Virus record (IMG/VR): IMGVR_UViG_3300010938_000017 | Source: a virus | Taxonomy: Duplodnaviria; Heunggongvirae; Uroviricota; Caudoviricetes | Reading direction: 5' to 3' (one strand) | DNA length: 64,000 nucleotides | Shown here: positions 13,215-62,162 of the stretch, piece after piece | How the letters are laid out: the number at the start of each line of letters is the position of its first letter | Position numbering within the stretch: the stretch's first letter is position 1 | Notes under the pieces: generated by a model | Seen by the model: the letters and a program-made list of their open reading frames with translations, nothing else | The model's database searches: none | Told to the model about the DNA's origin: nothing | Position numbers and translations under genes: made by a program

Positions 13215-13215
13215 T

Positions 13216-15277: not shown

Positions 15278-15303
15278 ACTCTATTCAAAATTAGGGACAT
15301 TCC

Positions 15304-16980: not shown

Positions 16981-17007
16981 TGAAACACTATATGAGAGGT
17001 TTTTAAA

Positions 17008-18027: not shown

Positions 18028-18036
18028 GGATTAAAT

Positions 18037-42029: not shown

Positions 42030-42284
42030 TTAAGGTGTATTGTCAATAGAATGTTCTTCAAGAAGCGCCTCTATTGCTTCATACATAACTAAGCGAAATC
42101 TCTTGATAATATGGCGTTTCGTATTCGATCTTAAACCAGTAGCCTTAGCTACTAAGTACATTTGTTCCCAAGTAAACCATATTTTATCATCATCATCGAC
42201 TTGTTTTAATATTGGTTTTTCCTTAGTGTGTTTTTGTAAAAGGTCACAATAAGGCTTACGATGTGCCGAAAATCTACGTTTCAT
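42030..42284 (-). CDS. hypothetical protein
   Basis: 84-aa ORF. Confidence 0.35.
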   Translation of the reverse strand: MKRRFSAHRKPYCDLLQKHTKEKPILKQVDDDDKIWFTWEQMYLVAKATGLRSNTKRHIIKRFRLVMYEAIEALLEEHSIDNTP

Positions 42285-42745
42285 TTTATATAAACCTTTA
42301 CCGTAATATCTTTAAATGTGCTTTCCAGGATTGCTTTTACAATGTTCCAGTCGCCACCGGCTAGTCCACATCCGATCTTTGGCATAGCGACTACATTAAT
42401 TTTATACTGTTTACAATAGTTGTATAGTTCTTCCATGCAGGAAACTAATGCATCGTAAGAAAGATACTTTTCACCATCTCCACCGTAATATTGTTGTGTA
42501 AAACAATTAGCTACCTGTTTACCATGACGTTCAACGTAAAATACATCGATCTTACCAAGAAAGTTTTCACCTTCAGGTCCAGCATTAAACTCTTCAAACA
42601 TATCGTGATACCATTGCTTAACTCTAGGCCACTTCTCAAATAAGGCTTTAGCAACACCGCTCCCCATAACGCCTTGGCAATTAACGCCGTGCGCTATAAG
42701 TGGAGCATCAGTATCTAAAAGATCACCCTTTATTTCCTGAATCAT
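42281..42745 (-). CDS. macro-domain protein (ADP-ribose binding/processing)
   Basis: The sequence IKGDLLDTDAPLIAHGVNCQGVMGSGVAKAL matches the macro-domain G-D-I-x...A-N and G-x-G-G-V signatures. The start is set at an ATG with an AAAGGGGAAG Shine-Dalgarno. Confidence 0.7.
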   Translation of the reverse strand: MIQEIKGDLLDTDAPLIAHGVNCQGVMGSGVAKALFEKWPRVKQWYHDMFEEFNAGPEGENFLGKIDVFYVERHGKQVANCFTQQYYGGDGEKYLSYDALVSCMEELYNYCKQYKINVVAMPKIGCGLAGGDWNIVKAILESTFKDITVKVYIK

Positions 42746-42917
42746 CTTTCTTCCCCTTTGGTCTAGGATTTCTTGTATCCATAACAAAAGACCAGTATTT
42801 ACCCCATTCACCAGTTTCGAGATGAGGACCTTCACCAGTCTCTTCATAACCAGATATCAAGCCGCGTTTCCTTTGGCTCTCAACTAGTTTCCAAAACTTT
42901 CGTTCTTTTCGATTCAT
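42723..42917 (-). CDS. small basic ORF between NAMPT and macro genes (uncertain)
   Basis: 64-aa ORF without a clear Shine-Dalgarno. It overlaps the longest version of the macro ORF. Confidence 0.25.
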   Translation of the reverse strand: MNRKERKFWKLVESQRKRGLISGYEETGEGPHLETGEWGKYWSFVMDTRNPRPKGKKDDSGNKG

Positions 42918-42922
42918 TTTTC

Positions 42923-44407
42923 TTAGGCTCGTTGACTTGTCAGCTTGTTACGGATATCTGCAAAGGTCTGTTCACGAATTAGCACACCATTCACGAACAC
43001 ATCCTGAAGTAGGTTGTGACCTGTGGCCGTAGCTTGTTCTTCATCCTTTTTCAAGAATCCATCGATGTAACCAATTGTACCATCAGCTTGCACTAGTACA
43101 ACCACTTTGCCTTTTTGAGAGATCTTAGTACCATCATCAGTCTTCGGTGCCTTAAAGATCTGACGCTCATCACCGTTAATTACTGCATACGTAGACTTAA
43201 GAGCGAACCCAAAAGTATCACGAGTATTATAATTATAGGTATAAGAGCCAATGCCGTAGACGAGGTTAGTAGTTGCGAAACCTTTTTCTTTAAGTTGATC
43301 GCAAATCGCTTGGCATCTTTCCAACGTGATTGCATCTCCATAGATACAACCAATATGAGAATCAAGCTCTCTATAGCCAGCAGAATTAGTCGTTCCGCCA
43401 AAGCTATCCCAAAGCGTTTCAACAAGGCCTTTGCGTTCTGCTTCAGTCTTTGCATCTTTATCTCCACAGATAATTTTAACCGGATCGCCAGAATCAGGGC
43501 GAATCACAAGTTTACCGTTACGAGCCATAATTTCAGTTTTCAATACAGGAAGAACTACTGTCACTACATTCCAAAAATCAGTAGTATCACTCACTACCGA
43601 TACAATACCTGAGGGATACAGTTGAGTAAGAATGCGACGATAAGCCGCTACTTCATCAGCCCCATAGGCCGACATGATTGAGTGCTCTGTAGCAGGTACT
43701 GAACAACCCACAAGCTCCTTTTCAACGTTAGCACCATAGTAGTGCTCTACGTAAAGGATTGCCGGAATGGTATCAGTGCCAACAAACGACAACAAGTGAC
43801 CAGCCCCGCTTAACATAGCCGATTCATTGCTACTCATACCACGATAGCTGAAGTCATGACCTTGGAATGGAACAAACTCTTGCGATCCACCAGTGTCTTT
43901 GGCACCCTTATTCAGGATTGTTCTGTATTGATTAGCGATGGTGGCGCTAGTGGAAGGTCCCCATAGTTCGGACGACATAAGGGTTTCAATGAAGTTAGTC
44001 AGCCAATAGAAACGAGGATCGGTATTCTCAATGGTCAACATCGGAACACGCAAAGGAACCAAGGTGCCTTCTTCTACTGCTTTGATTCGCAGAGGGAGAT
44101 AGCCTAGCTCATGCAGTTCAACAATGTGATCTGTCTCAGGGTTAGCAACCCCAAGAGTATTCTTAATGATACGAGTATACTCAGAGAGTACGTCAACGAT
44201 ATCACGATCAAAGAAGTTTTGATCGAAGTACGCGATCAGATATTTCTTAATGAAGCCCTGAAAACCAAAGGCCACAACCTTATTAACACCATCAATCCTG
44301 CTTGTACGAGGAGTCCAAGTAGAATATACAACTTCGGTTTTAGCTGGATAAAGCGAACGATGCGAGATCTTATAGAAGTCACACAATAACATTACTGACG
44401 GTTTCAT
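42923..44407 (-). CDS. nadV: nicotinamide phosphoribosyltransferase (NAMPT/NadV-like)
   Basis: The 494-aa length and overall composition fit type II PRTase/NAMPT, and it is adjacent to a Prs homologue. Confidence 0.8.
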   Translation of the reverse strand: MKPSVMLLCDFYKISHRSLYPAKTEVVYSTWTPRTSRIDGVNKVVAFGFQGFIKKYLIAYFDQNFFDRDIVDVLSEYTRIIKNTLGVANPETDHIVELHELGYLPLRIKAVEEGTLVPLRVPMLTIENTDPRFYWLTNFIETLMSSELWGPSTSATIANQYRTILNKGAKDTGGSQEFVPFQGHDFSYRGMSSNESAMLSGAGHLLSFVGTDTIPAILYVEHYYGANVEKELVGCSVPATEHSIMSAYGADEVAAYRRILTQLYPSGIVSVVSDTTDFWNVVTVVLPVLKTEIMARNGKLVIRPDSGDPVKIICGDKDAKTEAERKGLVETLWDSFGGTTNSAGYRELDSHIGCIYGDAITLERCQAICDQLKEKGFATTNLVYGIGSYTYNYNTRDTFGFALKSTYAVINGDERQIFKAPKTDDGTKISQKGKVVVLVQADGTIGYIDGFLKKDEEQATATGHNLLQDVFVNGVLIREQTFADIRNKLTSQRA

Positions 44408-44559
44408 ACTAACTCCACTTGTTTACGTTTTTTAACAATTACTTTATCATCTTTTTCTTCTGGGCCACGGCATTGTAGTTTAACTGTATGCTTACGTTGC
44501 TCCAAAACTTCAGCTTCAATTTCCATATCGAATTTCAATGAGTATTATTTAGCTTTCAT

Positions 44560-44976
44560 TTAGTATTGTTTCTCATATTTAACGTTGAATTTTTTAGGAA
44601 AGTTCTTTTCTACAAAGTTAACTAATCTTTTAACAACGGAAGCAGAGGCGTGTTTTGACTTCTCTCTTTGCATAATATATTCAAAGTAGTTTGATAATGC
44701 ACCTAAATAATTCTTTTCATTAAGCAATCGTTTAATATTGTGATCAACTGCTGTTCCTCTACAATAACCCATCGCTATTTCACTAAGAGTACTGGTAGGT
44801 GCAAGATTTAAAACTCTTTTATCCAAAGAATTTTTAAGGACAGCGCCGACCGCACAAACAAAACATGATTCCGAATATATATTAGTTTTTTCATCCTTAA
44901 AAAAAGCACCAGCTCTAAGTGGTTCAGTTTTAATAGCTTTAATTACTTTGTTTTTAGTTAGCTTAAGTGTTTTCAT
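44560..44976 (-). CDS. hypothetical protein embedded in the NAD cluster
   Basis: 138-aa ORF between NAMPT and the Prs-like gene, with no recognisable motif. Confidence 0.4.
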   Translation of the reverse strand: MKTLKLTKNKVIKAIKTEPLRAGAFFKDEKTNIYSESCFVCAVGAVLKNSLDKRVLNLAPTSTLSEIAMGYCRGTAVDHNIKRLLNEKNYLGALSNYFEYIMQREKSKHASASVVKRLVNFVEKNFPKKFNVKYEKQY

Positions 44977-45763
44977 ATTTCCTCACTGTAATTTGACCTT
45001 GAACTTCACTGACTTCTCCATCTTTAGTGAAGATTCGGTTAATCTTAGCTTCCTTTAATGGTCGCAATCCTTTTGAATAGATACCATGACTAGTATAAAG
45101 ACTAACTGACTTAGCTCCACTATTATAGAGTTCTTTAGCCAGTAATACAAACGTCATACCACCATCACAAATGTCATCAATGATCATTACGTCTTTATCA
45201 TAGACGGTACCATTCATATCATTAAGTGTATATTTAGTGATATTGCCTGTCAACTGATCACGTTGCTTTTCACCATGAGCCACTGAACGATTAAGGAACG
45301 CTAGGTTCTTTGCATATCGCAGTCTGGCACCACGATCAGGAAAGCACAACACATCAGGATCACACGCTTTAACCGCATTGGCGATCTGAACAACAGGAAA
45401 GATATTGTGAAAATTCTTGATAAGAAAGATAGGTTCATCGCTGTGTGAATCAATAGCTGAGATCTTGTCTAACTTCAATGTATTCAAGAAGTTAGCGAAT
45501 GTCCTTAAAGCGAATGTGGATTCATTGCTGATCTCTTTATCTTGACGACCATAAGGCAGGTAATCCATAGCCAAAGAAATCTTCTTTACTTTCATAGACC
45601 TAAGCAGGTCAACCAGTTGGGCTAGGTGAAACAGTTCTGCCTCTTGAGAGAATTTCCAATCAATCATGGCAATGTCACCAACGATGAACGGAAGCTTCCA
45701 AACCTGTGAAGTCTGGTCACTAAAACGAGTTACCTCAATTGGATAACTATTTACGCTAATCAT
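44963..45763 (-). CDS. ribose-phosphate pyrophosphokinase (Prs) homologue, short form (266 aa)
   Basis: RFSD...VW, LPYGRQDK (resembling Prs IPYFGYARQDR) and the PRPP-binding loop VMIIDDICDGGMTF are present. Confidence 0.8.
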   Translation of the reverse strand: MISVNSYPIEVTRFSDQTSQVWKLPFIVGDIAMIDWKFSQEAELFHLAQLVDLLRSMKVKKISLAMDYLPYGRQDKEISNESTFALRTFANFLNTLKLDKISAIDSHSDEPIFLIKNFHNIFPVVQIANAVKACDPDVLCFPDRGARLRYAKNLAFLNRSVAHGEKQRDQLTGNITKYTLNDMNGTVYDKDVMIIDDICDGGMTFVLLAKELYNSGAKSVSLYTSHGIYSKGLRPLKEAKINRIFTKDGEVSEVQGQITVRKYENT

Positions 45764-45907: not shown

Positions 45908-47353
45908 TTAGCGAGTCGAGGCTCCGTTAGACTTACCCGAACCATTCAATGCCGAAGCAGAGGGAGCCGGTTTAGCCAAAGTCTTGGTCAAGTTACCTAA
46001 CAGACCAGCGCCTTGTTCACTATTATTCAAAGCCTCAAGCATGGCACCAACTTGAGTGCCACCATTAGCAGTAAACAAGTCCATCACATTCGTCAAACCT
46101 TGGGTAGGTCCTGCTCCAGTGTTGGAGATAACCTTAATATCGGCATGGCCCAAAGCCTTAGCTTGCTCAACACCCACAGCTTGAGCGGCATGAATCTTTT
46201 CAATAGTAACGAGATACTCTTGATATTCCTTATTGCCACCAATCTCTTTAGCCAAGGTAATCTGTGCAGATACAGGAGCTAGTTCCATTGCCTTTGTAGC
46301 TTCAGCACGAGCAGTACCTTCAAGACTAATACCTTCAGCCTCGCGGCGCTTTGCTTCCAGATCGCCTTCAGCAACCAGAGTAAGTGTTGCCTTCTGTGCT
46401 TCAGCATTAATAAGCTGGGTTTGCTTTTGGCCTTCAGCGTTAATAACCTGAGTTTGTTTAATCTGTTCAGCCTTAACTATTTCAACTTCACGAGCAATTT
46501 CAGCGGTACGAACTTGTTGAACACTAAACACGTTCATCTCTTTCTCTTTAGTCACCTTTTCTTGTTCCTTAATTGCCTGAATCTTCTCTTGTTGAGCAAG
46601 GGCAACCTGACGTTCATTCTGAGTTGTACGCAGACCTACTTCTTGTTTTGCATTTTGATCCTGCAAATCAATTTCTTTCTTAGCTTCAATCTCAGCGATA
46701 GAAGCAACGCGCTTATTCTTAGCAACCTCAGTACGAGATTCCATTTCGATATGCGATTGTTTCTTAGCCATAATGTTCTTAATCACAGGGCTATCTTTAG
46801 AGTCACGAATGTCCATCAACTCGATGTTTTTAACAGTCGAAACACCCCAGTTCTTAAGCTGTTCAGCCACTTCTTTAGTGAACTGTTCGCCAAATACTGA
46901 GCGACCTTGCAGGATTTCTTCAATGTCGTAACTGGCCAAGACCACACGTACTGCGCCTTGAACAATCGAGGTCAATTGATCATGTAGTTCTTTAAAGGAA
47001 CTAACACGTTGAGCGGCAGTATTGCTATCAGAAATACGAAAGAAAGCCATAATGTCAACTACGAAAGGCAAGCGGCCTTTATCATAAGCTTCGTAGTTAT
47101 CAAGACGTAGTGAAAATACACTAACAGGCAAGATAATCCTGGTCACTCCAAAGAAAGGAACAAACGAAGGCCATTGATAATAAACGTTACCGTTACCAGT
47201 GTCTTTACCGTAACTAGTAGTTTTACGTGCCGATTGAACGGTATGTACTTCATTAGTCGATACTACTCGACGAAATACGAAAGCTACGAACAGGAACGTT
47301 GCGAGAGCTACGACACCTAATGTACCGAGAGCCGTAAGTGTAATTAGATCCAT
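45908..47353 (-). CDS. SPFH/band-7 (flotillin-like) membrane protein
   Basis: An N-terminal TM (LGTLGVVALATFLFVAFVF) is followed by an SPFH-like region and a long EA/EK coiled coil of flotillin type. Confidence 0.65.
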   Translation of the reverse strand: MDLITLTALGTLGVVALATFLFVAFVFRRVVSTNEVHTVQSARKTTSYGKDTGNGNVYYQWPSFVPFFGVTRIILPVSVFSLRLDNYEAYDKGRLPFVVDIMAFFRISDSNTAAQRVSSFKELHDQLTSIVQGAVRVVLASYDIEEILQGRSVFGEQFTKEVAEQLKNWGVSTVKNIELMDIRDSKDSPVIKNIMAKKQSHIEMESRTEVAKNKRVASIAEIEAKKEIDLQDQNAKQEVGLRTTQNERQVALAQQEKIQAIKEQEKVTKEKEMNVFSVQQVRTAEIAREVEIVKAEQIKQTQVINAEGQKQTQLINAEAQKATLTLVAEGDLEAKRREAEGISLEGTARAEATKAMELAPVSAQITLAKEIGGNKEYQEYLVTIEKIHAAQAVGVEQAKALGHADIKVISNTGAGPTQGLTNVMDLFTANGGTQVGAMLEALNNSEQGAGLLGNLTKTLAKPAPSASALNGSGKSNGASTR

Positions 47354-47486: not shown

Positions 47487-47882
47487 TCAGTAGGAGGAGC
47501 CTGAGTTCCAGTCGCCTGAGTTCCTGTTGCCTGAGTTCCCGTTGCCTGAGTTCGTTTTATTCATAAAAAAATCTAAAAGATATGAATGATCTAGTTCTTT
47601 AACTATTCTAATTTTTGAAGTACAAGTTTTATCTTGTTCATCAAGAGTTGGACCAATTGCCTCAATTTCACAAATCCTGGTGTCAATACTTTTCTTATAA
47701 TAATTATATACATCCAAAAGATTTTTACAAAAATGAAAACCATTTGAACACATTAATAGTTCACCTTCAACTTCATAGGTTTTACCTACTTCAAATTGAA
47801 AGTCTTTACACTTAAGATCTTTATCAAAAGCTTTATAACCTTTCACTTGACACCTCTTCTTCGAGAAACTTTCCAAAGACAT
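47487..47882 (-). CDS. hypothetical protein with C-terminal NSG pentapeptide repeats
   Basis: The C-terminus reads GNGNSGNRNSGDWNSGSSY and is encoded by a 15-nt tandem repeat. Confidence 0.45.
   Translation of the reverse strand: MSLESFSKKRCQVKGYKAFDKDLKCKDFQFEVGKTYEVEGELLMCSNGFHFCKNLLDVYNYYKKSIDTRICEIEAIGPTLDEQDKTCTSKIRIVKELDHSYLLDFFMNKTNSGNGNSGNRNSGDWNSGSSY
47499..47555 (-). repeat. 15-nt tandem repeat (gcctgagttccNgtN, about 3.7 copies)
   Basis: Read directly from the sequence; it lies in-frame in the 3' end of the gene at 47487-47882. Confidence 0.7.
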
Positions 47883-48118
47883 TGACGCACACGTTCTCTA
47901 GTCACATTAAACTTCTCAGCAATTTCATTCACATCCCAACCATCTTTATACATTATTGCCATAAGAAGATAGCGAGGATAATAAGGTTTAAGGGAATAAC
48001 GATTCACAATTGCATAAACATCAAGCTTATCTCTAGACGGATAATCAGAATTATTATGACGACTATTATTTTTATAAATATCTTTAAAAATATCTACCAT
48101 AGATCTTCGCATTAACAT
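47843..48118 (-). CDS. sigma-70 region-4-like helix-turn-helix protein
   Basis: The C-terminus EIAEKFNVTRERVRQCLWKVSRR matches the sigma region 4.2 HTH (compare LGVTRERIRQIE). Confidence 0.5.
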   Translation of the reverse strand: MLMRRSMVDIFKDIYKNNSRHNNSDYPSRDKLDVYAIVNRYSLKPYYPRYLLMAIMYKDGWDVNEIAEKFNVTRERVRQCLWKVSRRRGVK

Positions 48119-49901: not shown

Positions 49902-50708
49902 TTAGTAATTATAACCATCGTCGCTGTTGTAGTAATCGTCGTCAGCTTCCAATTCATTGTATTCTTCATTTTCAAGATCAGCCATCATCTCTTCATTGTC
50001 CATGCGATACACTGGTTCAGTTCGCATTGCTTCACTTTTAGCTACAACCTCGAACTTACAGACGCGCATCTTTGTGCCGTTGTAATCAGTAGGAACAGCA
50101 ACCACATCTTTGGGATCAACTGCGACTTCAATCAACTGTGGACCAAAGCTTCGAGCGTAATCATAACAGGCTACATGCAACCCGTGGCTACAAGTATTGT
50201 TGGGATTGTCATCCACTTGATCTCGTGGCACTTCACAAACTTGGCCCACCGAGTTATCAAACTTGCCGGTATGTTGATCCTTGAAGTCTTTGGTTACACC
50301 ACGGTATGCGATGAACCGACCATCCTCAGTCAACGGATGCCCGTTGTGTTCAAGGAACGCATAGAGCATTTTTCGAGAATTGAATGAAGGGTTCTGCTTA
50401 AGGTTCTTCCAAAACTTGACCATGATATCAATGGGTAGTTGAGCTTCGACAAGTTGTAAGACTCGCTTACTCAGCGTCTCAGGCAGCGGTTCGTTGTCCA
50501 TGTGCAGAAGACCATCCTTCAACACTAGACCTCTCTTTGCAAAGGCAGCTTCGGTATCCATCAACTCAGGAATATCACCTAGTCGATTCTCACGAATACA
50601 AGCCACGATCTGTTCGAAGCGCGTATCCCCTTTACGGAATACACTAGTTCGACCATTATGATTAACCACTACTGAATCACCTAGCAAATGATAGTTAACT
50701 TGTTTCAT
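49902..50708 (-). CDS. rIIB: rIIB protein
   Basis: The C-terminus TCSHGLHVACYDYARSFG...DVVAVPTDYNGTKMRVCKFEVV aligns with T4 rIIB (TCSRGLHVCSKSYIRHFG...DVVSIPIDYNDAKMRTCQYEVV). Confidence 0.85.
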   Translation of the reverse strand: MKQVNYHLLGDSVVVNHNGRTSVFRKGDTRFEQIVACIRENRLGDIPELMDTEAAFAKRGLVLKDGLLHMDNEPLPETLSKRVLQLVEAQLPIDIMVKFWKNLKQNPSFNSRKMLYAFLEHNGHPLTEDGRFIAYRGVTKDFKDQHTGKFDNSVGQVCEVPRDQVDDNPNNTCSHGLHVACYDYARSFGPQLIEVAVDPKDVVAVPTDYNGTKMRVCKFEVVAKSEAMRTEPVYRMDNEEMMADLENEEYNELEADDDYYNSDDGYNY

Positions 50709-50730: not shown

Positions 50731-50759
50731 CTATCGGTATCGTTCTTTAAAAACTTTAG
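50731..50759 (-). promoter_or_regulatory. conserved promoter-like element, copy 1 (upstream of rIIB)
   Basis: In the coding orientation it reads CTAAAGTTTTTAAAGAACGATACCGATAGATAAAC and is followed by the GGGAGAGAG Shine-Dalgarno and the ATG. Confidence 0.5.
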
Positions 50760-50761
50760 CA

Positions 50762-52789
50762 CTATTTTGAATTAATATATAAAGCTATGTCATCACTCAA
50801 CTTATTAAAGTTTGCATGGTTGATAGCATCTAACAACGGATACTCTTTAAGCTTCTTAGTCAACTCTGCATCCTCTTTATTAAACGTATCAACGTCCGGT
50901 TGCTGGCCAAATATCTTTAGTATCTTGGTAGGAATACTATCATATGTGGCTGATCTAGAGTCTACCATTATCTCTTTATACTCAGCAATCATTTTGTTTA
51001 AGAACTTATCTTTAATACCTGTAACGTTTAACAGACTACTCATCATATCGGTATTCTTAGCTTCCTTAAGCTTTAAGACAGCAACATCTTTCTTAGTAGC
51101 CTTTACCTTAGCTAATTGTGTCTCTAATGGTATGAAGTTTGCATCACCTTTAACCAGACTTATCGCCTGTTTCGATAAAGCACATACCTTAAAACCTTGA
51201 GCAGAGAAGTACGTGTCCATCTCATGTAATTCAGACTTGTTTATAAGATCAGTCTTCTCAACAAACAACCACTTAGTAGTATTCGATTCAGTACTAACTG
51301 TCAGCATTGTATGTCTGACGCGGTCCATTCGATGAACGATGAACTGTTTCTTTGTTCGTTCAACCTTCATCGACTCCCGAGCCTTACGATCCGGTTTGGT
51401 AAAAGCCAGTGAAGACAATGGCTTAAGACCTAAATCCTTCTTGACTTTATCAAACTCACCTTTATCATCCTTGTGCTTACTAAACAGAATGAGATGTTTG
51501 TTCGTCTTTAAAAAATCCTTGATACGATAATTCGTAATGACCATTGCCTCAGTCGTATCGTTGTAGTAAAGAGCATCGAAGTATACAGCGTTGATATAAG
51601 GCGTTGAATATGACCAGGAGTATCTCGTTTTCTTGAACAGATTATCCTTAAGCAAACTGTTGTTGGTCGGATGAAACTGACACTTATGAGCTATGATCTT
51701 TTCAAACAAAGGTGATTGAATTTGATTCTTAGCATCAACCGTATAGTCACCATACTTTCTAAAAGAATCCAGATTGTACTTATCCTTCAATGTCATGAAC
51801 GTAGTTAGATGCTCAAAGGGTGACGTAACTTTAGCAAACTCTTTCTTTAGTCTAGCCAAGATGTTCTTGTGTGCTTCAGCCGCGATCTTATCCAGGTTAT
51901 CTAAAGTGTATTTAGAATCGGAGATCTCTTCACGAGATGCACCGACTTCAATCTCACCGTTACCAACGTGAAGAACTATGTTTGAAGTTACACTCTCTTT
52001 TAACAATTTTAAGTTAGGGCACGAAGCAATAAGAGATTCACCTGCCACATAAGGAATACCATCAATTGAGATAACAATCTTTTTACCGTAATGATCGGCG
52101 ATGTAATTTGGCAACTCCGTACACAACTCAACGTTACCAATAGTTTCGCCTTGGACACGAGGAACTACTTCCTCCTTAGTAAAACCTTTTAAGATCGGTT
52201 GTTCTTTCTCAGGCCAGAAGTATACAGCACGACGAGCCGCATTCTTAAACTCTTCAACATCCTTCGGACTAACTGGAATCTGAATCTCTGTTCCATTCGG
52301 CTGATCGGTGTTAGCCTCTCCTAAATAATCCAAACGTCCGTTGTTATTCGCTCCGATATGGGCAATGTAAGTACGTTGTACCCCATCGATGTATGTAACA
52401 ACCGTAAACGATTCGGTGTAGGACCATGCCGATTTCGCACCAATGCCGAAGCCGCCAGTCTCTTTGTTCGACTTATCCTTAGTCGAAGCATCATACTTGA
52501 TGAAGACATTCAACATCCTGTCAGGGGTAATGCCAGGACCAAAGTCACGAACCTTAAACGTTGGTGTGAAAATTGTGGGCACAGTAATCTCAATGCGGTC
52601 GGAGGAACCTAACTCCCTCATCGCATCACGAGCATTACAAATATACTCTTGGCTTGGTGTACGAACTTTAAACTTGTACATTTTGTTACGAAGAATCTCA
52701 ATGATCTTTGAAGTATCACCAATTGAAAACTCTTGACTGGTGAACTGAGCGTTAGTCTCAAGTGTTTTTTGTGTTTGATTCAATTTCAT
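50762..52789 (-). CDS. rIIA: rIIA protein
   Basis: The N-terminus FSIGDTSKIIEIL...FKVRDFGPGIT...GGFGIGAKSAWSY aligns with T4 rIIA (FSITASPKVFKIL...FVCRDFGPGMS...GGFGLGSKSPFSY). Confidence 0.85.
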   Translation of the reverse strand: MKLNQTQKTLETNAQFTSQEFSIGDTSKIIEILRNKMYKFKVRTPSQEYICNARDAMRELGSSDRIEITVPTIFTPTFKVRDFGPGITPDRMLNVFIKYDASTKDKSNKETGGFGIGAKSAWSYTESFTVVTYIDGVQRTYIAHIGANNNGRLDYLGEANTDQPNGTEIQIPVSPKDVEEFKNAARRAVYFWPEKEQPILKGFTKEEVVPRVQGETIGNVELCTELPNYIADHYGKKIVISIDGIPYVAGESLIASCPNLKLLKESVTSNIVLHVGNGEIEVGASREEISDSKYTLDNLDKIAAEAHKNILARLKKEFAKVTSPFEHLTTFMTLKDKYNLDSFRKYGDYTVDAKNQIQSPLFEKIIAHKCQFHPTNNSLLKDNLFKKTRYSWSYSTPYINAVYFDALYYNDTTEAMVITNYRIKDFLKTNKHLILFSKHKDDKGEFDKVKKDLGLKPLSSLAFTKPDRKARESMKVERTKKQFIVHRMDRVRHTMLTVSTESNTTKWLFVEKTDLINKSELHEMDTYFSAQGFKVCALSKQAISLVKGDANFIPLETQLAKVKATKKDVAVLKLKEAKNTDMMSSLLNVTGIKDKFLNKMIAEYKEIMVDSRSATYDSIPTKILKIFGQQPDVDTFNKEDAELTKKLKEYPLLDAINHANFNKLSDDIALYINSK

Positions 52790-53128
52790 GCAATCTCCTT
52801 AAACTCAATCTCATTTTTAATCCACCAACGTATTACAACTGTCAAAACTTTCGTAAACTACTGTTTAGTTTGCGACTCAGTTTGAGGCGTTCCCCAGACT
52901 CAAAGCGAAACACACGTAACTAATGTTGATTGATACAACCAATATCCAGAAGATAGGACTAGCTGGGATGTTAGTTATAAAGTGTTGAGCAACTGCAATA
53001 ATAAAAGACAATACAGTAAGAGATACAATCCGTTTAATATGTTTCATATGTTCCTTTAAAAGAAGTTCGTTTTTGTTTTACTCTAAGAACGAACTAAACT
53101 TAGGACTTGAGCCTGGGGACACAGGCTA

Positions 53129-53389
53129 CTATTTTACTTCATAAAATTGTTTATTGATATTCAAACTACTTACTGTCTCAAGATTAACCATACGGTAATC
53201 TTTGGCTTGCATGTCAAAGACAGTGATCAAGTTATAGTCACTTGGATCATAGGTCAAGCCGTTACCATTAGTCTTATTTGAAACACCAAGTCTACAATTC
53301 ATCTTCCTTACTTCACCATCCTTCTTAGTAAAAGTTACTGTAAAGATCTTACCATTTGATTTAGTGATCAAATCCTTTGCCTGTTCCAA
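53129..53389 (-). CDS. hypothetical protein
   Basis: 86-aa ORF. Confidence 0.4.
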   Translation of the reverse strand: MEQAKDLITKSNGKIFTVTFTKKDGEVRKMNCRLGVSNKTNGNGLTYDPSDYNLITVFDMQAKDYRMVNLETVSSLNINKQFYEVK

Positions 53390-53654
53390 ATCAAGAATGT
53401 TTGCATTAGCTTCTGTCTTCTTATTAACCTTAGCCTTAGAAACTTTTACTTCTTCTTTATCATAACCAAGACAACTAACAGTACCGTCTCGTTTCAGGAT
53501 ATATGTATATTCCTGTCCACAATCTGAGTCGTAGGGAACAACCTAATCAATCCAGCAGTTGTTCTCATTTTGAGATTCCACTTAATAGTCGGTACCACAA
53601 CAGTAGGAAACTTCGCCTTGAACTGAGATACAACCCTATCAATGATATCCCGTT

Positions 53655-53855
53655 TCATAACACTTCAATCTTTTCTTCTTCAATACAACCCATGTCAATA
53701 TATCTTACTTTAGATACATTAAACTTTAAGAACGTATCAATCTTAGATAGAGTCTCAACTTGAAACAACTCCAATTGTTTCTTAGTAGGTTTAATAAAGT
53801 AATGTTCTTTAACTAAACAGTTACCAAACAAATCAACCGCTTCAATTTTATACAT
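53655..53855 (-). CDS. hypothetical protein
   Basis: 66-aa ORF with a Shine-Dalgarno; promoter-element copy 2 lies upstream. Confidence 0.4.
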   Translation of the reverse strand: MYKIEAVDLFGNCLVKEHYFIKPTKKQLELFQVETLSKIDTFLKFNVSKVRYIDMGCIEEEKIEVL

Positions 53856-53870
53856 ATCATATCCCTTTTG

Positions 53871-54425
53871 TTAAGAGCTACAAACACCGTACACTAGCCA
53901 GCGTAACTCTCTACTATTCTTATCGGCTTTCTTTTGTAGAACTTTAGCCTCATCTGAAATTTTCTTATTAACTAATGCAAGTTTATTATTAAGCGATTGT
54001 TCCTTATTAGTATATGTATTAGATGCAAACGAACCATCACATATTGGACAACGTAACGTTCTGGTACGGAATCGTGTATCAAGTTGAGACTTACAATGTG
54101 AACACTTAATAAACTCAACCGCTTTTAACTTCGACTCAACATGAGACGCTTTTTCAGTTCGTAACAATCTAATCTCTTCTTCAATTTTGAGACGTTGCTC
54201 TTTAAGACGTTTCAGTTTAGCACTCTCTTTAATTTTATTGCTTGTCTTAAATTGAGCCGCTAATGCATCACCCCATTTTTTTGCATTATTAGCACAATAA
54301 TCATACGCCTCATTTAGGGATTCGAATGTCTTATTAGTAAACGTTAATCCTGTACACATATTGAGAATAAGAGTTACCAGACTCATATTTACATTCATCT
54401 TGATACTCTTTAAACTTTGCCTCAA
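53871..54425 (-). CDS. zinc-ribbon / coiled-coil protein (start uncertain)
   Basis: Zinc-ribbon motif CSHCKSQLD...CPICDGSF. The longest ORF begins at a TTG; probable ATG starts lie at 54398 or 54385. Confidence 0.4.
   Translation of the reverse strand: MRQSLKSIKMNVNMSLVTLILNMCTGLTFTNKTFESLNEAYDYCANNAKKWGDALAAQFKTSNKIKESAKLKRLKEQRLKIEEEIRLLRTEKASHVESKLKAVEFIKCSHCKSQLDTRFRTRTLRCPICDGSFASNTYTNKEQSLNNKLALVNKKISDEAKVLQKKADKNSRELRWLVYGVCSS
53918..53947 (-). promoter_or_regulatory. conserved promoter-like element, copy 2 (diverged)
   Basis: The coding orientation reads CTAAAGTTCTACAAAAGAAAGCCGATAAGAATAG. It overlaps the 3' end of the upstream gene. Confidence 0.4.
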
Positions 54426-54507
54426 CTTGAGACATTGTTAATTTGCCGTCAAGTTCAATAGAATCGTCGCAAGCTCCCATATAATTCCTCCGTCTCATTT
54501 TGAAACG

Positions 54508-54753
54508 TTAGTCGCTCGTGTCCCAGTCTGAATCAATTAGTGTTAACTGACCATCTGCTTCAATATAAAACAATCCTGTTCCCCATTTGGCACGTTTAGG
54601 TCTTGTCTCAAATTCATCCACATAAACGTCTCGATGTAAGACACCTAATTTTTCTAATGCAGGATCAATTGATTCAATATGAAACGGTCGTGGCATATAG
54701 TTTAAAACGTGCTGACCTAATTGAATGTATCTCATTATGATACCTTTGCCCAC
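54508..54753 (-). CDS. hypothetical protein
   Basis: 81-aa ORF. Confidence 0.4.
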   Translation of the reverse strand: MGKGIIMRYIQLGQHVLNYMPRPFHIESIDPALEKLGVLHRDVYVDEFETRPKRAKWGTGLFYIEADGQLTLIDSDWDTSD

Positions 54754-55412
54754 TTCGTATTAGTATAAGATTTTGTCCCATGATAGCACAGTCCCACTTT
54801 GGGATTGTTACCCATAGCTGTTACCATATCATCTTGAGTCGCATCACTATAACCCGCTGTCTTAAGTTGAGACACTGTCTCAAATACACGCGAATGAAAA
54901 TCTTTATTAATATCAATTAGAGAATCCTGTTTGCCTCCAAATGAGAATATAACTCGGAAGTTCTTAGGAATACGTTTCTCACTTTGATACTGTTTGAACA
55001 TCTTAACTTGTTTAGTATAGGCATAAAATGATACAGTACTCGTTGACTCAAATCGACACATGATCATTAGCCACTTATCAAGATATGTCTCATTATAGAA
55101 ATCACCAGCATCGTGGATTCTCACTTTGAGATGCTTAGTGTTTCTCTTATTGATCCACTTTTCAATCTCAGCAATCATATCAGTAACGAACGTATCAGTT
55201 TGAGTTAATGCTAATTTAGCTTCGTGTGCTTTTGAGACATTGTTCCAAATGTAGGCACCTTGTTTAGCATAACAACCCGCAGCACATAATCCCGCATTGG
55301 GACATGTCTTAAGACCTGTCTTAGATTGAAACGCTGGTATCGTCCAGTTCACTACAGTAATCCCATTTTGAGACGACTTCTTCATCTTTGCGTTTTGTGT
55401 TAACAATTCCAT
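54735..55412 (-). CDS. hypothetical protein with Cys cluster (CPNAGLCAAGCYA)
   Basis: 225-aa ORF with an AAGGAGG Shine-Dalgarno; promoter copy 3 lies upstream. Confidence 0.5.
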   Translation of the reverse strand: MELLTQNAKMKKSSQNGITVVNWTIPAFQSKTGLKTCPNAGLCAAGCYAKQGAYIWNNVSKAHEAKLALTQTDTFVTDMIAEIEKWINKRNTKHLKVRIHDAGDFYNETYLDKWLMIMCRFESTSTVSFYAYTKQVKMFKQYQSEKRIPKNFRVIFSFGGKQDSLIDINKDFHSRVFETVSQLKTAGYSDATQDDMVTAMGNNPKVGLCYHGTKSYTNTKWAKVS

Positions 55413-55428
55413 GTGTCCTCCTTACAAT

Positions 55429-55461
55429 ATAACTTATCGGTATTATTCTAGAAAACTTTAG
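55429..55461 (-). promoter_or_regulatory. conserved promoter-like element, copy 3
   Basis: The coding orientation reads CTAAAGTTTTCTAGAATAATACCGATAAGTTATATTGT, followed by AAGGAGG and the ATG. Confidence 0.55.
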
Positions 55462-55523
55462 GACTAAATCAACTATTTTTCTGTATCATTTCGAGGCGCT
55501 TCCCCCGTTTCATTCTGATACGA

Positions 55524-55949
55524 TCAGTTCCCAAAGTGAGATGCTATAACTGATTTAGCAAACAAATGACCATCATCCCTAATACGCTCAAGCGTCTCAT
55601 TAAGATCCACAGGATGATATAGATTGTATTGTTTTGTGTCAACTCCAGCCGCCTCAACTTGATACTTACTCATCTCAAAACAGACCGTTAGTTCAATAAC
55701 TCCTTTTGAGGCACGAGGAAACTCTTGTCTCATACTGGGTCGTGCATAACTTGGTACGCCTCGAACTGATACGGCATCAAGTACAACATTCTTAATTTGA
55801 GCCATGCCAGCCTCAAGAGGATTCTGTTTCTTTTTGATACGGTTAAATTCTTTTGCATCAAATTGAATCACTACAGCCAGTTCATAGCCATCTTGTCCAT
55901 AGCCACGCTGTCTCTGAATGACACCTTTCATCGATTTAATATAATTCAT
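55524..55949 (-). CDS. hypothetical protein
   Basis: 141-aa ORF; promoter copy 4 lies upstream. Confidence 0.45.
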   Translation of the reverse strand: MNYIKSMKGVIQRQRGYGQDGYELAVVIQFDAKEFNRIKKKQNPLEAGMAQIKNVVLDAVSVRGVPSYARPSMRQEFPRASKGVIELTVCFEMSKYQVEAAGVDTKQYNLYHPVDLNETLERIRDDGHLFAKSVIASHFGN

Positions 55950-55962
55950 GTTGTCCCCTTAT

Positions 55963-55996
55963 AATAACTTATCGGTCAACTCTCAAAAAACTTTAG
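55963..55996 (-). promoter_or_regulatory. conserved promoter-like element, copy 4
   Basis: CTAAAGTTTTTTGAGAGTTGACCGATAAGTTATTATAAGGGG, followed by the ATG. Confidence 0.55.
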
Positions 55997-56289
55997 AGCT
56001 AAATTGAGATCTTTACAAATAACAGCGACCACATTTGATACTATCATAATAGTACACTGTCTCAGCATGGGCCATATACTCTTCATCACATTTCCAACAG
56101 CCCACTTTGATACGTTTACCAGTGCCGCGATAATATCGATATAAGACCATAAGCTTAAAAGCCTTGTATCAAATATAGACACGCGATCTACCATATAGAT
56201 TTCTTGATGCCAAATATAAAAACTGTTTCATAATAGAACGCTTAATAATGGGGCGACTTGATAATATCGCCCTAATCTCTTGTTTCATA

Positions 56290-56661
56290 TTAATACAACT
56301 TTTCTTGTACACAATCGTACACATAAGAACTGTCTTCATTTAATACGTCTAATTCTTCGTCAGTCATTTCCCTGCCTTGATATGAGGCGCTTGCAATAAA
56401 AGCATCACAAAAGTCAGGATAGTCTCGTATATCAATACCATCCACTTCAACATCCTCAATTTGAGAATAGTCCAGTTTGATACGTTCTCTAATAGGACCA
56501 TGTGTAAATAGACGAATCTTGTTTTGATCCATTGCTTCAAATCGAGACACCCAACGTTTGTATCCTGCCTCTGTCTTAAATTTAAACGTTCGTCCCTCTG
56601 TGAAACGCTCACGCGGTACCATCACCTTAATCACATACCCTATAATTTTTCGTTCTGTCAT
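56290..56661 (-). CDS. hypothetical protein
   Basis: 123-aa ORF; promoter copy 5 lies upstream. Confidence 0.45.
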   Translation of the reverse strand: MTERKIIGYVIKVMVPRERFTEGRTFKFKTEAGYKRWVSRFEAMDQNKIRLFTHGPIRERIKLDYSQIEDVEVDGIDIRDYPDFCDAFIASASYQGREMTDEELDVLNEDSSYVYDCVQEKLY

Positions 56662-56670
56662 ATGTCCTCC

Positions 56671-56707
56671 ATATATATACTGATCGGTATCTTATCAGAA
56701 AACTTTA
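56671..56707 (-). promoter_or_regulatory. conserved promoter-like element, copy 5
   Basis: CTAAAGTTTTCTGATAAGATACCGATCAGTATATATATGGAGG, followed by the ATG. Confidence 0.55.
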
Positions 56708-56806
56708 GTCAAAAACCACATTTATTTTCGTCTCACTTTGAGGCGTTAAGGGAACGCCTCAAATAGAGATGGACTAAGGTATCTCATATTAAGACACCTT
56801 AACTAT

Positions 56807-57004
56807 CTAAGACACCTTAACTATAAGACCATCTTTCATGGTCACTTGAGCGTACCATTTCCGAACGTATGGAGATGGGCCAACGACACAAAATGAGCCG
56901 TTTTCTTTATATTCAGGACCAAACATAGATGTCTCAGTATAATTCAACGGTTTCCCAATTTGAGACTTCAACTCTTTTTTCGTTTTATAATTAGCACCCA
57001 TCAT
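56807..57004 (-). CDS. hypothetical protein
   Basis: 65-aa ORF with an AAGGAGG Shine-Dalgarno. It is preceded by a 155-nt leader downstream of promoter copy 6. Confidence 0.45.
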   Translation of the reverse strand: MMGANYKTKKELKSQIGKPLNYTETSMFGPEYKENGSFCVVGPSPYVRKWYAQVTMKDGLIVKVS

Positions 57005-57160
57005 GGAACGCCTCCTTTTGATACAGTTATTATTCTTCGTATGAATATGGATCGTCTCTCAAAATAAAACAACCTGCATTCCGGTTGACCGAAGATAGAC
57101 GCATATCAGTCCTATCGATTAGTCTGGCCACCGCTTACCGGCTTACCATCACCGCGCTTA

Positions 57161-57195
57161 CATATAATTTATCGGTGTCTTTTCGTAAAACTTTA
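57161..57195 (-). promoter_or_regulatory. conserved promoter-like element, copy 6
   Basis: CTAAAGTTTTACGAAAAGACACCGATAAATTATATGT. Confidence 0.5.
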
Positions 57196-58305
57196 GCAAT
57201 ATATTAACTATTTTATTGACTCATAACGATACATGCATCAAAATGGGATTAACAACTGAATGTGAACGAACCATCTTGAGACAAGGCCCGTATTGTCTCA
57301 TTTTGAGCCGTTCCTAAATGAAACATAAGGAAATGTGTCATTTTAAAGCAATCAACATAATAGTTCGTCCCATATCAAGGTGTTTGATTGTGAGTGTATT
57401 AAAACTAATCGTATTGTAATGATACGACTCATTTCGAGACTAATCCTGCTGTGGTACGTCTCAAGGTGAATGAGCTAAAATGTGACATATTCGTGACCAC
57501 CTATTGAATGTCTCACTTTAATACAACTAGCCTATTATGAGGCCTAGTATCATAACGAGAATAAAGTGTATTAATTCGAGACTTAACCCTCTCTAATGGA
57601 TTTTTTTAACTATAATATAAAATGTTATTAAGTTTAACCTATTTAAGATAATATATAACACAATCCTGATGAGAATTAGCTTATTTAACTTGAAATAATA
57701 TATATTTCATCTAATAGAGTATATTAACTTATCCTGAAATGATACAGTAAACTATATTGAATCTGAAGTGAAATCAATACGTTATCACATCTAATGTAAA
57801 GCATTGTAAAAGCATCTACAATAGAGTATATAATGAATGTATTAATACCTATTAAGACTGTATCTTTTTCTATAAATCACATATAACAGCTAAAAACTAA
57901 TAAATTGTCACGGATAAGTGTCTCAAAATGGTATTTTGGCATCTTATTTGCAGGATAATGGTGTGTCTCACTATAGATACACTTTAAAATCGCTATATTA
58001 AGCTATAAACGCTTAGTGTATAATCATTTTACGCTCCAAAATGAGTCATTTATCCTGTGTATTAACCTTAGAATAGGCTATATTAGTGCCTACAATGACA
58101 TATGAGAGGCGTAGCCTGAACGGGGTCACTGGGGGTCACTCGGTAACATCATTTTAAATACCTATTTCTACTACGTTTTTAATACATGTTACTCAATGAC
58201 ACCAGGTTCGGGTTTCAATATGATACAGGCACAATTCTTGCAAATACAAAAACCATGCCATGTCTCATTTTGATCCTCCGTCTCAAATTGATACGTTTAA
58301 TTTAG

Positions 58306-58345
58306 ATACAAAAAAACCCTGTACCATTGCGATACAGGGTAAAAC
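58306..58345 (-). terminator. Rho-independent terminator
   Basis: The minus strand reads CCCTGTAtcgcaatggTACAGGG followed by T7, just downstream of the stop at 58371. Confidence 0.65.
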
Positions 58346-58370
58346 TTGTGTATTAACACCTATGGGACGA

Positions 58371-58595
58371 CTAGGCTACACGTTTTTTATTGAGAAAATC
58401 AACCTTAATAACATTATGGTCGTTTTTAAGACGCTTATGGATTTTAGCCATCTGAAATTTAGCTATAGCCATTTCTTTACTCCAATATGAGATAGCATAC
58501 TGATCGCCTGTCTCACATTTACATTGTAACGCCGTACCACACTGAGAAATCCTTTGGGCCAAAATATTTAATGCACCGATATAATACTGTCTCAT
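58371..58595 (-). CDS. hypothetical protein
   Basis: 74-aa ORF with a GAGGGAG Shine-Dalgarno and an ATGAGACAG start. Confidence 0.45.
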   Translation of the reverse strand: MRQYYIGALNILAQRISQCGTALQCKCETGDQYAISYWSKEMAIAKFQMAKIHKRLKNDHNVIKVDFLNKKRVA

Positions 58596-58910
58596 TTTGA
58601 AACTCCCTCTTCTTTAAGTATGTGTCTCACTTAAAAACGCTTTTAAATCTTAATTTGAGACAATAATTTATCAATTAACTCTTGTCTCATATTAGCCCAC
58701 CTCGTCCAAGGTCTCAAAATCGTCCACATTCTCAAAATAGTCCTCAATCTCAAATAGAGACTCTTCATCTAGGAACGTAACATCCTGAGACAGTTTCTCT
58801 ACTAATTCTGCTTTCTCAGTTTCAGTCAATTGGTATACATTTACATCATGTTTCATAACGAGTCGTCCCCTTTTCGTTAATGTTTATTCACTTAATTCTT
58901 AACTGCCTGA

Positions 58911-58945
58911 CATATAACTTATCGGTGTATTAACTCTTAACTTGA
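58911..58945 (-). promoter_or_regulatory. conserved promoter-like element, copy 7
   Basis: CTCAAGTTAAGAGTTAATACACCGATAAGTTATATGT. Confidence 0.5.
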
Positions 58946-59610
58946 GGTATTTTGTCATCTTATTATTCTATGGATACCATAAGCAGAACTGCGTCTCATA
59001 ATGAAACCCCTTTCTCCGTTGTCTCATTTTGATACACTTCCTCCGGCATGGTTATTGCATGGGGGCACAGTGGCACGGTTTATGCATAACTGGGTATGGC
59101 TGGCACAGTATGTGCAATATCAAGAGTCATGCCAACGTCTCAGGTTGAGACAGAGGGAGGGGTAGGGGGGATGGGGGGTACAAACAGACGAATGACCGGA
59201 AATGTCTATATACTAGAGAGAGTATTTTATTAACAATACAACTTATTACACTTAATCAGACTTTTCAGATTTCTTTCTTAGAATAGTCTTTGGAGTAAAC
59301 GATTGGTCTTTCGGATAGAACTTTTCACGTTCTCTACGTTTCTTTTTCCAGTAAGGATCATCCTTATCGGCGTACCGACCTTTCTCACTTTTAGATAAAA
59401 ATCTCATAATTTATTATCACTAGACATTAATAAAACGGTTCTCGATCACATTGGCCAGGGTAACTGGCTTGAGCCGATAAGCAACCATCTCACCACTATG
59501 AGCATTTCAGCTCTTTGGAGTAGGTGACACTCAAGACTGGTACTCTTTGGTCCGCGCCAGTACGCAATTAAATTATCTCTTATATAATTTTTGAAGTCAA
59601 TTATAACTTA

Positions 59611-59841
59611 TTACACTATCTTCTTTAGAATCAACTCATTGTTGTTATTCATATCCTTTTCTCGATCAACGTCACGGTCACGAGAGCATCGGATGAAGAA
59701 GTCACGTTGGCTCATAGCTAGTTCCAATGCCTCAACCAACTTCAGGATATCTTGTCGATAGTACTTCACCAAGTTAGCATCAGACTTAACATCGCCAGTG
59801 TTGTAGAATTTGAGTTGGTCTAATTTTTCTTTAAGTGTCAT
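59611..59841 (-). CDS. hypothetical protein
   Basis: 76-aa ORF. Its start lies inside a GTGTAATAAGTTATG box that recurs at 59227 and 59614. Confidence 0.4.
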   Translation of the reverse strand: MTLKEKLDQLKFYNTGDVKSDANLVKYYRQDILKLVEALELAMSQRDFFIRCSRDRDVDREKDMNNNNELILKKIV

Positions 59842-60047
59842 AACTTATTACACTTCTTATTAGAACACTTCATGAGGATGGGTTCAGAGACATCTGGTGA
59901 TAGGTGTTGCCCTGTTCCCTTACAATATTCGCAGACAGTTTGTTTTGGAGAAGTAGGAGTCTTACGAGACTTAATAGAATAAATGGTTTCAGGTTTTTGA
60001 CCTTTAGGCGTTGTAGGTACTCTCATTCCCCAATCTATAGATTTCAT
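59838..60047 (-). CDS. zinc-ribbon small protein
   Basis: CEYCKGTG...CSNKKC motif. Confidence 0.4.
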   Translation of the reverse strand: MKSIDWGMRVPTTPKGQKPETIYSIKSRKTPTSPKQTVCEYCKGTGQHLSPDVSEPILMKCSNKKCNKL

Positions 60048-60296: not shown

Positions 60297-60371
60297 TGGC
60301 GTACCCTCTTGGAATCTAACCAAGGACCTTCGACTTAACAAGACGCTGCTCTAACACTGAGCTAAGGGCAC
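60297..60371 (-). tRNA. tRNA-Asn(GUU)-like gene with encoded CCA and a weak anticodon stem
   Basis: The minus strand reads GTGCCCTTAGCTCAGTGTTAGAGCAGCGTCTTGTTAAGTCGAAGGTCCTTGGTTAGATTCCAAGAGGGTACGCCA. It has a 7-bp acceptor stem (one G-U), a 4-bp D stem, a perfect 5-bp T stem and a TTGTTAA loop. The anticodon stem has only 3 of 5 pairs, and A56 and the absence of G18G19 are atypical. Confidence 0.5.
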
Positions 60372-61562: not shown

Positions 61563-61850
61563 TTAAATGGTCACGAACCAGCCTTTTGTTAAGGAGAACT
61601 CTTCGGTAGGCTTGTCAGAAACTTTAGTCTCTTTTTGAGATTGTGAAGCTTGACCGCGTTTGAATCCCAATTTATAGGCGCAGTCAAAGGCTTCGTTCCA
61701 AAAAGGGAAGTTGCGGAGCTGGATGTTGAAGGCCCAGTGATATTGGTCGGCTCCCAACTTTTCGGCGAGGATTCGGACCTTTTCTGGGCGTTTGGGCTTT
61801 AGATCTAACATGAAGCTCTCATGAATCCAATAACCATTAGTAAATCTCAC
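61563..61850 (-). CDS. hypothetical protein
   Basis: 95-aa ORF. Confidence 0.4.
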   Translation of the reverse strand: MRFTNGYWIHESFMLDLKPKRPEKVRILAEKLGADQYHWAFNIQLRNFPFWNEAFDCAYKLGFKRGQASQSQKETKVSDKPTEEFSLTKGWFVTI

Positions 61851-62068: not shown

Positions 62069-62162
62069 ACTAACTCCTAAAAATGGTCTGAGTAACAGGA
62101 TTTGCACCTGCGTCTTCCAGATTCCAGATCTGGCCTGCACCTATTTCCAGCCACACTCAGGA

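Follow-up and report, generated by a model that had tools for sequence, protein, structure and literature searches.

The early region of the caudoviricete genome IMGVR_UViG_3300010938_000017 raises the question of which form of RNA polymerase reads it. The stretch analysed, hereafter the window, is 64 kb of an 84,081-bp JGI contig (P0001). Between 50.7 and 59.0 kb its minus strand carries seven same-strand copies of an element that can be written c-TAAAGTTT-N11(12)-(A/G)CCGATAA-gttatat, and these lie ahead of small open reading frames (ORFs), a GP88-family gene and rIIB. A preliminary description of the locus had noted the seven copies, each by the low-coordinate end of the same element, and all are indeed present. 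We find that the element belongs, very probably, to the sigma-28 class of promoters, the class that in bacteria drives flagellar genes. We further consider it likely, with a probability of about 0.6, that the early cassettes are transcribed by host RNA polymerase carrying the host sigma-28. It should be emphasized that we infer both that transcription starts at these elements and that the sigma factor is that of the host.

The most upstream copy (P1, 58912..58946, minus strand, as are all that follow) consists of the -35 octamer TCAAGTTA at 58945-58938 and, after a spacer of 11 nt, the -10 octamer ACCGATAA at 58926-58919; both of its mismatches to the consensus are within the -35, transcription is predicted to start (+1) at ~58913, and ORFs 58692-58856 and 58371-58595 follow, then a terminator at 58340-58316. 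P2 (57162..57196, with the T of TAAAGTTT at 57195) is a perfect TAAAGTTT-N11-ACCGATAA that stands before ORF 56807-57004 and has a predicted +1 at ~57163. P4 (55962..55996, T at 55995) and P5 (55427..55461, T at 55460) are equally perfect; their predicted starts are 55963 and 55428, with the ATG of ORF 55524-55949 and that of the GP88-family gene 54735-55412 lying, respectively, 19 and 21 nt on. P3 (56674..56708, T at 56707) reads TAAAGTTT-N11-ACCGATCA, with a predicted +1 at 56675 and the ATG of ORF 56290-56661 19 nt on, and P7 (50724..50759, T at 50758) reads TAAAGTTT-N12-ACCGATAG, with a predicted +1 at 50725 and the ATG of rIIB (49902-50708) 22 nt on. The remaining copy, P6 (53913..53947, T at 53946; TAAAGTTC-N11-GCCGATAA; predicted +1 53914), lies ~65 nt ahead of ORF 53655-53855 and lies within the last 80 nt, at the 3' end, of the upstream ORF 53871-54425, whereas the other six copies are intergenic.

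The copies are highly uniform. The -35 octamer TAAAGTTT is exact in five of the seven and retains seven of eight positions in one (TAAAGTTC) and six of eight in another (TCAAGTTA); CCGATAA is exact in five, ACCGATCA and ACCGATAG each differing from GCCGATAA at one position beyond the A-for-G at position 1; and the CGA core of the -10 box is present in all seven. The first base of the -10 is A in six copies and G in P6, and the spacer is N11 everywhere except in the rIIB copy, where it is N12. Thus, with A allowed for G at the first -10 position, three copies match at 16/16 positions, three have one mismatch and one has two. Sites were scored over these 16 positions with the pattern TAAAGTTT-N11/12-[A/G]CCGATA[A/T], and the level expected by chance was taken from 300 Markov-1 shuffles of the window. 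Three sites had no mismatch, six had at most one and eight had at most two, against shuffle means of 0.0, 0.05 and 0.64. The six sites with at most one mismatch are all on the coding strand and lie within 8.2 kb, and neither the plus strand nor any part of the window below 50.7 kb contains a site with two mismatches or fewer; a scan of this kind had been proposed in the preliminary description, and it places every near-perfect site in the early block and none on the plus strand. In the 64 kb there are five exact copies of the 10-mer CTAAAGTTTT, each of them on the minus strand and between 50750 and 57196. A doubtful eighth site, TAAAGTTT-N11-ACCGAAGA at 61600..61626 (minus strand), has two mismatches, falls within coding sequence and is poor in the 3' half of its -10.

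Sigma-28, which is FliA in Proteobacteria, SigD in Bacillus and WhiG in Streptomyces, directs transcription from class III flagellar promoters. Its published consensus is TAAAGTTT-n11-GCCGATAA (PMC2859248, PMC7286023), and the phage element equals it in both boxes and in spacing. At other sigma-28 promoters the CGA of the -10 octamer has been reported to be essential, and at the aer promoter of Escherichia coli transcription starts 6 bp past that octamer; when 6 nt are counted in the same way here, +1 falls at the A/T of the GTTATAT tail. In the preliminary description the sequence was taken to be promoter-like, to precede genes on their coding strand and to differ from a sigma-70 pair, all of which is upheld. 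Its observation that conservation extends well beyond such a pair is also correct and finds its explanation in the sigma-28 octamers together with the discriminator and start site (GTTATAT); the special factor that it derived from this, a modified host polymerase or a phage protein, is not needed to explain boxes and an 11-bp spacer that coincide with a known consensus. The copy at 53918, there called diverged, turns out to be the only one with the canonical GCCGATAA. A housekeeping sigma-70 promoter (TTGACA-N16-18-TATAAT) was also considered and rejected: no acceptable in-register hexamer pair lies inside the elements, and sigma-70-type matches in the region are at the chance level (56 found, 56.3 expected from shuffles).

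All seven copies are co-oriented with the genes downstream of them, and the distance from the -10 octamer to the ATG is 19-22 nt in four, ~62-65 nt in two (those at 58945 and 53946) and ~160 nt in one (57195), in agreement with the distances, including the long leader at 57161, that had been described before. Each of the four close copies is followed by a strong Shine-Dalgarno sequence before the ATG, and the leaders predicted for the close copies, ~12-16 nt, hold little else. It could be argued from this proximity to the Shine-Dalgarno and ATG in four cases that the conserved 35-mer acts as RNA, whether it is processed, controls translation as an operator or folds into a structured leader. 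This is hardly credible: the seven copies fold with -0.8 to -8 kcal/mol (z -1.1 to +1.3) and share no stable structure, Rfam recognizes only tRNA in the region and nothing in the element, and a transcript from the element's own promoter, with its predicted start 6 nt past the -10 octamer, would not include most of the element. The leader of P2, ~155-160 nt long, contains a terminator-like hairpin with a T-run (57087-57070, minus strand) ahead of ORF 56807-57004, its overall stability being ordinary (z = 0.32); P2 may give rise to a short transcript of ~100 nt or to an attenuated leader before that ORF.

If the elements are sigma-28 promoters, the same motif should be familiar from bacterial chromosomes, and it is. 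The exact extended phage form, CTAAAGTTTT-N10/11-ACCGATAAG with 19 specified bases, was found in at least 120 stretches of species-representative bacterial genomes from many phyla. Among the matches listed, the first downstream ORFs (n=91) comprised 18 flagellins, three FliD, two FlgM, one FlaA and one MotA, together with sensors of the methyl-accepting chemotaxis protein type and EAL/GGDEF proteins. The bacterial genes downstream of the motif are the classical sigma-28 regulon. The phage sites share with bacterial sigma-28 promoters both octamers, the 11-bp spacer, the CGA core, the C before the -35 and the G after the -10. In contrast with their bacterial counterparts, the phage sites form an array, of seven copies here and 12-13 in a relative, before small ORFs, the GP88-family gene and rIIB, none of which is flagellar; the phage lineage favours A over G at the first -10 position (18/22 sites); and its leaders are very short, the Shine-Dalgarno lying 10-15 nt past the -10.

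The motif is not confined to this phage. In IMG/VR the A-form was found in 42 stretches and the G-form in 76, a total of 118 in 100 distinct contigs, while two composition-matched scrambled patterns returned one stretch and none. The viral loci range from 29 to 52% GC, and many carry additional near-consensus copies in the same orientation. Almost all of the distinct downstream ORFs (68/70) begin within 64 nt of the -10, the median distance being ~28 nt; they include AAA ATPases, RtcB, an RNA ligase, Mom and helix-turn-helix proteins, and are mostly small proteins without assignment. None of the 66 viral downstream ORFs scanned encodes a flagellar protein, and the 1.06 Mb surrounding the viral sites contain no flagellin gene. 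Contaminating flagellar loci of the host do not account for the viral occurrences, and the phenomenon, judged by IMG/VR, is widespread. The promoter class itself is textbook knowledge; full-text literature searches, which are not proof of absence, turned up no description of its use in arrays before the early genes of phages. A single good site, TCAAGTTT-N11-GCCGATAT, occurs on the plus strand at 1744 in the flagellotropic Salmonella phage Chi (L053, JX094499), at the 3' end of chi_001 and directly upstream of the lysis genes; Chi has no array.

These data bear on another explanation, in which the elements are not promoters at all but sites for a phage DNA-binding protein, that is, operators or iterons built on AAGTT-N18-AAGTT, or else junctions of mobile cassettes. 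AAGTT does occur in both boxes, about two helical turns apart, and the sites border small, hypervariable ORFs that differ in content between relatives, an arrangement that recalls the promoter/stem-loop borders of T4-type cassettes. Operators of this type would leave unexplained the single orientation, strictly matched to the genes, and the register to the Shine-Dalgarno and ATG that is fixed in ~70 viral cases; the sites have no dyad symmetry, the CCGATAA part is no repeat of the first box, and the whole equals a known promoter consensus. A role as cassette border, moreover, would be additional to promoter function and not an alternative to it. We regard this explanation as very improbable.

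In relatives the two boxes are the conserved part of the element. The synteny anchors are rIIA (50762-52789) and rIIB (49902-50708), both on the minus strand. The related 84.7-kb contig L046 has an rIIA that is 55% identical and keeps the gene order from 58.6 kb of the window down to 36 kb; every one of the 12-13 sites in its homologous early block, ~9.5 kb ending at rIIB, is on the coding strand, and a 118-kb IMG/VR contig (L001, L025, L058) contains at least eight. Orthologous promoters precede the GP88-family gene and rIIB in all three genomes: P5 corresponds to 7063 of L046 and 5927 of L058, and P7 to 12017 of L046, where it is degenerate, and 1597 of L025, where it is perfect. When these orthologous intergenic regions are aligned the invariant runs are the two boxes, the flanks retaining just a few isolated invariant bases. 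Pooling the sites of the lineage (n=26) reveals preferences at positions that played no part in their selection, namely a C ahead of the -35 in 91%, a T directly behind it in 86%, a G following the -10 in 95% and an A-rich spacer centre, with 22 N11 and four N12 spacers. Sites have also decayed. Upstream of rIIA, at ~52850, the window has GAAAGTTT-N11-ATACGTTG where L046 (9952) and L001/L058 have a perfect site, and at ~53447, before the WYL_2 gene 53129-53389, it has the decayed-looking AAAAGTTT-N11-GTTAATAA where L046 is perfect (8488). Such decayed sites are the mark of turnover of these predicted promoters within the lineage. The genomes L054-L057, whose GP88 homologues are 60-70% identical, have no such sites. 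Among cultured phages megablast of the region gave no match, and tblastn of PolB, the primase-helicase and rIIB gave just 25-44% matches to unrelated phages; with matches so distant and unrelated, no host can therefore be inferred.

If the elements are sigma-28 promoters, the question becomes whose sigma factor reads them. A sigma-70-family gene was not detected in the window, either by Pfam, applied to concatenated and to individual ORFs, or by tblastn with FliA, SigD and RpoD queries, which worked as positive controls on L043 and L045. ('Serglycin' matches that Pfam returned on the concatenated ORFs are an artefact of the GS linker.) No sigma gene was found in the 22 kb of L046 that were examined, in the DNA to the left of the window, whether from the same phage (L049, ~2 kb) or from the relatives L050 and L052, or in the 1.06 Mb around the 118 viral stretches, where ~41 would be expected if each contig had a FliA-like gene at a random place. 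Because no sigma gene was found in the DNA examined, host sigma-28 would be the most economical reader of the array.

It could be argued instead that the promoters are read by a FliA-like sigma encoded by the phage in the ~18 kb of the contig outside the window and produced from genes expressed earlier, and that they are middle promoters of a cascade, as are those of SPO1 gp28. A cascade would accord with the separate class of GTGTAATAAGTT boxes further upstream in this phage and in L046, which could mark an earlier gene class, and with a third motif, GTTAACAACTGTATTTGA, before plus-strand late genes (both described below); an array restricted to one lineage among the GP88-carrying phages would also be in keeping with it. 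Some phage records do encode FliA-like sigmas, and the distant relative L051 encodes a small extracytoplasmic function (ECF)-like sigma. The records with FliA-like genes that were examined (MT835480 and MT835847), however, have no sigma-28 promoter arrays and hence provide no precedent, and L051 has its sigma without any sigma-28 sites. Given also that no sigma domain was found in the window, in the 22 kb of L046, in the left flanks or in the viral 1.06 Mb, we consider a phage-encoded reader unlikely. ORF 2611-3144 was tried as a homologue of the L051 sigma and showed no homology to it.

The other possibility, which is the idea of the preliminary description, is that host polymerase with sigma-70 is re-targeted by a phage appropriator or activator in the manner of T4 MotA/AsiA. 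In its favour, the upstream box is not TTGACA, and the window encodes a 91-residue protein (ORF 47843-48118, minus strand) whose C-terminal helix-turn-helix, EIAEKFNVTRERVRQ, resembles region 4.2 of a sigma factor. That region, however, is of the RpoD and not the FliA type: the protein keeps VTRERVRQ, for which known sigma-70 structures point to TTGACA as the specificity, and its best matches in the PDB are RpoD region 4 fragments (E 0.1-0.4). The Pfam match to Sigma70_r4 is below threshold (E=0.0037), and no homologue was detected in L046, which has more copies of the element than the window. Re-targeting would, furthermore, make the sigma-28 match of boxes and spacing a coincidence, would leave unexplained that flagellin genes in bacteria are preceded by the same motif, and would have to dispense with a TATAAT-like hexamer in the correct register of the downstream box. 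Such a mechanism is thus quite improbable, and the product of this ORF is unlikely to read the TAAAGTTT box. It could act as a sigma-70 region-4 decoy or block -35 sites. Ahead of this ORF, at 48204-48176, stands TTGACA-17-TAAAAT with TG, which among extended sigma-70-type sequences is the best match of the region.

On the reading that we prefer, host core polymerase with host sigma-28 would span the 11-bp spacer, contacting TAAAGTTT with sigma region 4 and (A/G)CCGATAA with regions 2/3, and would initiate within GTTATAT, on the A/T ~6 nt past the -10. The small early genes in series, along with the GP88-family gene and rIIB, would be transcribed in this way with no phage protein required, each promoter being joined to a minimal leader and a Shine-Dalgarno/ATG. 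Expression of the block would then depend on a motile host, in which FlgM has been exported and FliA is active. Several points weigh against this reading. The sigma-28 holoenzyme is normally a minor species restrained by FlgM, an odd choice for the early genes of a lytic phage. A highly divergent sigma would escape tblastn with the FliA, SigD and RpoD queries, as did the ECF-like sigma of L051, and the ~18 kb of the 84,081-bp contig outside the examined sequence might encode one. Finally, the array is lineage-specific among GP88 phages, and a phage factor gained by that lineage would fit as well.

We suggest, tentatively and at a little under even odds, that a broad group of phages, represented by at least 100 IMG/VR contigs and including the present rIIA/rIIB lineage, wires early cassettes to the flagellar sigma of the host and has no sigma of its own. 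If this is correct, infection would be gated on a motile, FlgM-depleted host, the lytic early programme would be tied to the motility state of the cell, and phage susceptibility would be linked to FlhDC/FlgM/FliA and to cyclic di-GMP. This would give a mechanism for a possible preference for motile cells as hosts, and would be a natural fit for flagellotropic phages, as a rotating flagellum guarantees active sigma-28. A second host sigma would join the sigma-70 of the standard picture of early genes, and arrays of TAAAGTTT-N11-CCGATAA before Shine-Dalgarno-ATG sequences could serve as a simple marker predicting a flagellated host for uncultured phages. The compact cassettes of sigma-28 promoter and ribosome-binding site might also be of use in synthetic biology.

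Several known phage systems provide partial parallels, the nearest being sigma-H at staphylococcal prophage int and systems with a phage-encoded sigma such as phiEco32/7-11. The middle promoters of SPO1 (gp28) and T4 (MotA/AsiA) have a phage-specific consensus that is read by a phage-encoded protein. The phiEco32-like phages (phiEco32/7-11) encode their own sigma (PMC8948821). The present array resembles the SPO1 gp28, phiEco32/7-11 gp36 and T4 MotA/AsiA systems in placing many copies of a long non-sigma-70 consensus before gene groups, as a temporal class. It differs from them in that the consensus is that of a ubiquitous alternative sigma of the host and that no phage sigma was found in the 64 kb examined. 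The T4-type early cassettes, in which promoters and small ORFs form modules with promoter early stem-loops (PeSLs), are driven by strong sigma-70 promoters; they share with the present locus the repeated promoter-Shine-Dalgarno-small-ORF modules, the hypervariable early region and the gain and loss of modules between relatives, whereas here the promoters would be of the sigma-28 type and no associated stem-loops were seen. For Staphylococcus aureus, PMC2869324 describes a conserved 40-bp region upstream of prophage int in connection with sigma-H. The similarity is that a host alternative sigma, and not the housekeeping one, acts through a conserved upstream element common to several phages, and the difference is that there a single promoter serves the integration and excision of temperate phages, in contrast with arrays in an apparently lytic rIIA/rIIB phage that would use another sigma.

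The promoter or regulatory sequences of the phage seem to fall into no fewer than three classes, of which the sigma-28 class serves the small-ORF block down to rIIB. The GTGTAATAAGTT boxes lie, in both phages, only upstream of the sigma-28 array: three in 59.2-59.9 kb of the window (59842-59853, 59605-59616 and 59240-59251, minus strand) and, in L046, five within the initial 2.1 kb (538, 1191, 1519, 1815 and 2066). The preliminary description had regarded these boxes as related to the element by their core; they do exist, each of the three in the window being an exact 12-mer, but form a separate class with no CCG/CGA core and no common -35, some of them lying between Shine-Dalgarno and ATG or overlapping a stop codon. 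The third motif, GTTAACAACTGTATTTGA, is present in two exact copies on the plus strand (3286-3303 and 15259-15276; 0.07 expected), 30-45 nt before the genes at 3334 and 15304, and is a candidate late promoter or activator site, the genes being structural and presumably late.

Annotation of the rest of the window is sparse. The large plus-strand ORFs at 3334-21416 (158-1439 residues; seven of the ten over 150 residues were scanned) gave no convincing Pfam or PHROG match, a single weak PHROG hit having E=4e-4, and no part of the window was recognized as encoding a terminase, portal or capsid protein. In essence, sequence profiles cannot annotate the structural module of this lineage. The last ORF of the window has no homologue besides itself. 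A 15-nt tandem repeat in L046 (9093-9419) proved to be merely the coding repeat of a pentapeptide-repeat protein. Among the small ORFs far upstream of the array lie, on the minus strand, a tRNA-Asn(GTT) on which ARAGORN and Rfam agree (60297-60371) and a second, weaker tRNA-like match (62087-62160; Rfam 35.6 bits) that ARAGORN did not call. A set of NAD-related genes at 42281-45763 (minus strand) comprises a nicotinamide phosphoribosyltransferase (42923-44407), a ribose-phosphate pyrophosphokinase-like protein (44963-45763) and a macro-domain protein (42281-42847), and is adjoined by an SPFH/Band-7 protein (45908-47353).

The hexamer TGAGAC/GTCTCA is concentrated in the early block, at 52000-60000, on both strands (for example at 59026, 58594, 58267, 57300 and 54497, minus strand). 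These 8 kb hold 27/38 of the minus-strand and 12/17 of the plus-strand copies of the window, in coding and non-coding DNA alike. The hexamer often occurs as TCAAAATGAGAC (six exact copies) and sometimes as the dyad GTCTCA-N3-TGAGAC, and it is also enriched at 2000-10000 of L046; its copies have the look of half-sites to which a protein would bind, or of some other signal at the level of DNA. Two long segments of the same region are poor in genes. That at 57005-58370, directly after the strong terminator 58340-58316, is AT-rich and has many TGAGAC sites. The other, at 58596-59610, has a C-rich tract at ~59150-59190 and, preceded by a sigma-70-like promoter sequence at 59600-59572 (TTGACT-17-GATAAT), a segment rich in GC (59420-59560); the GC-rich segment, for which Rfam has no match, could be a small RNA.

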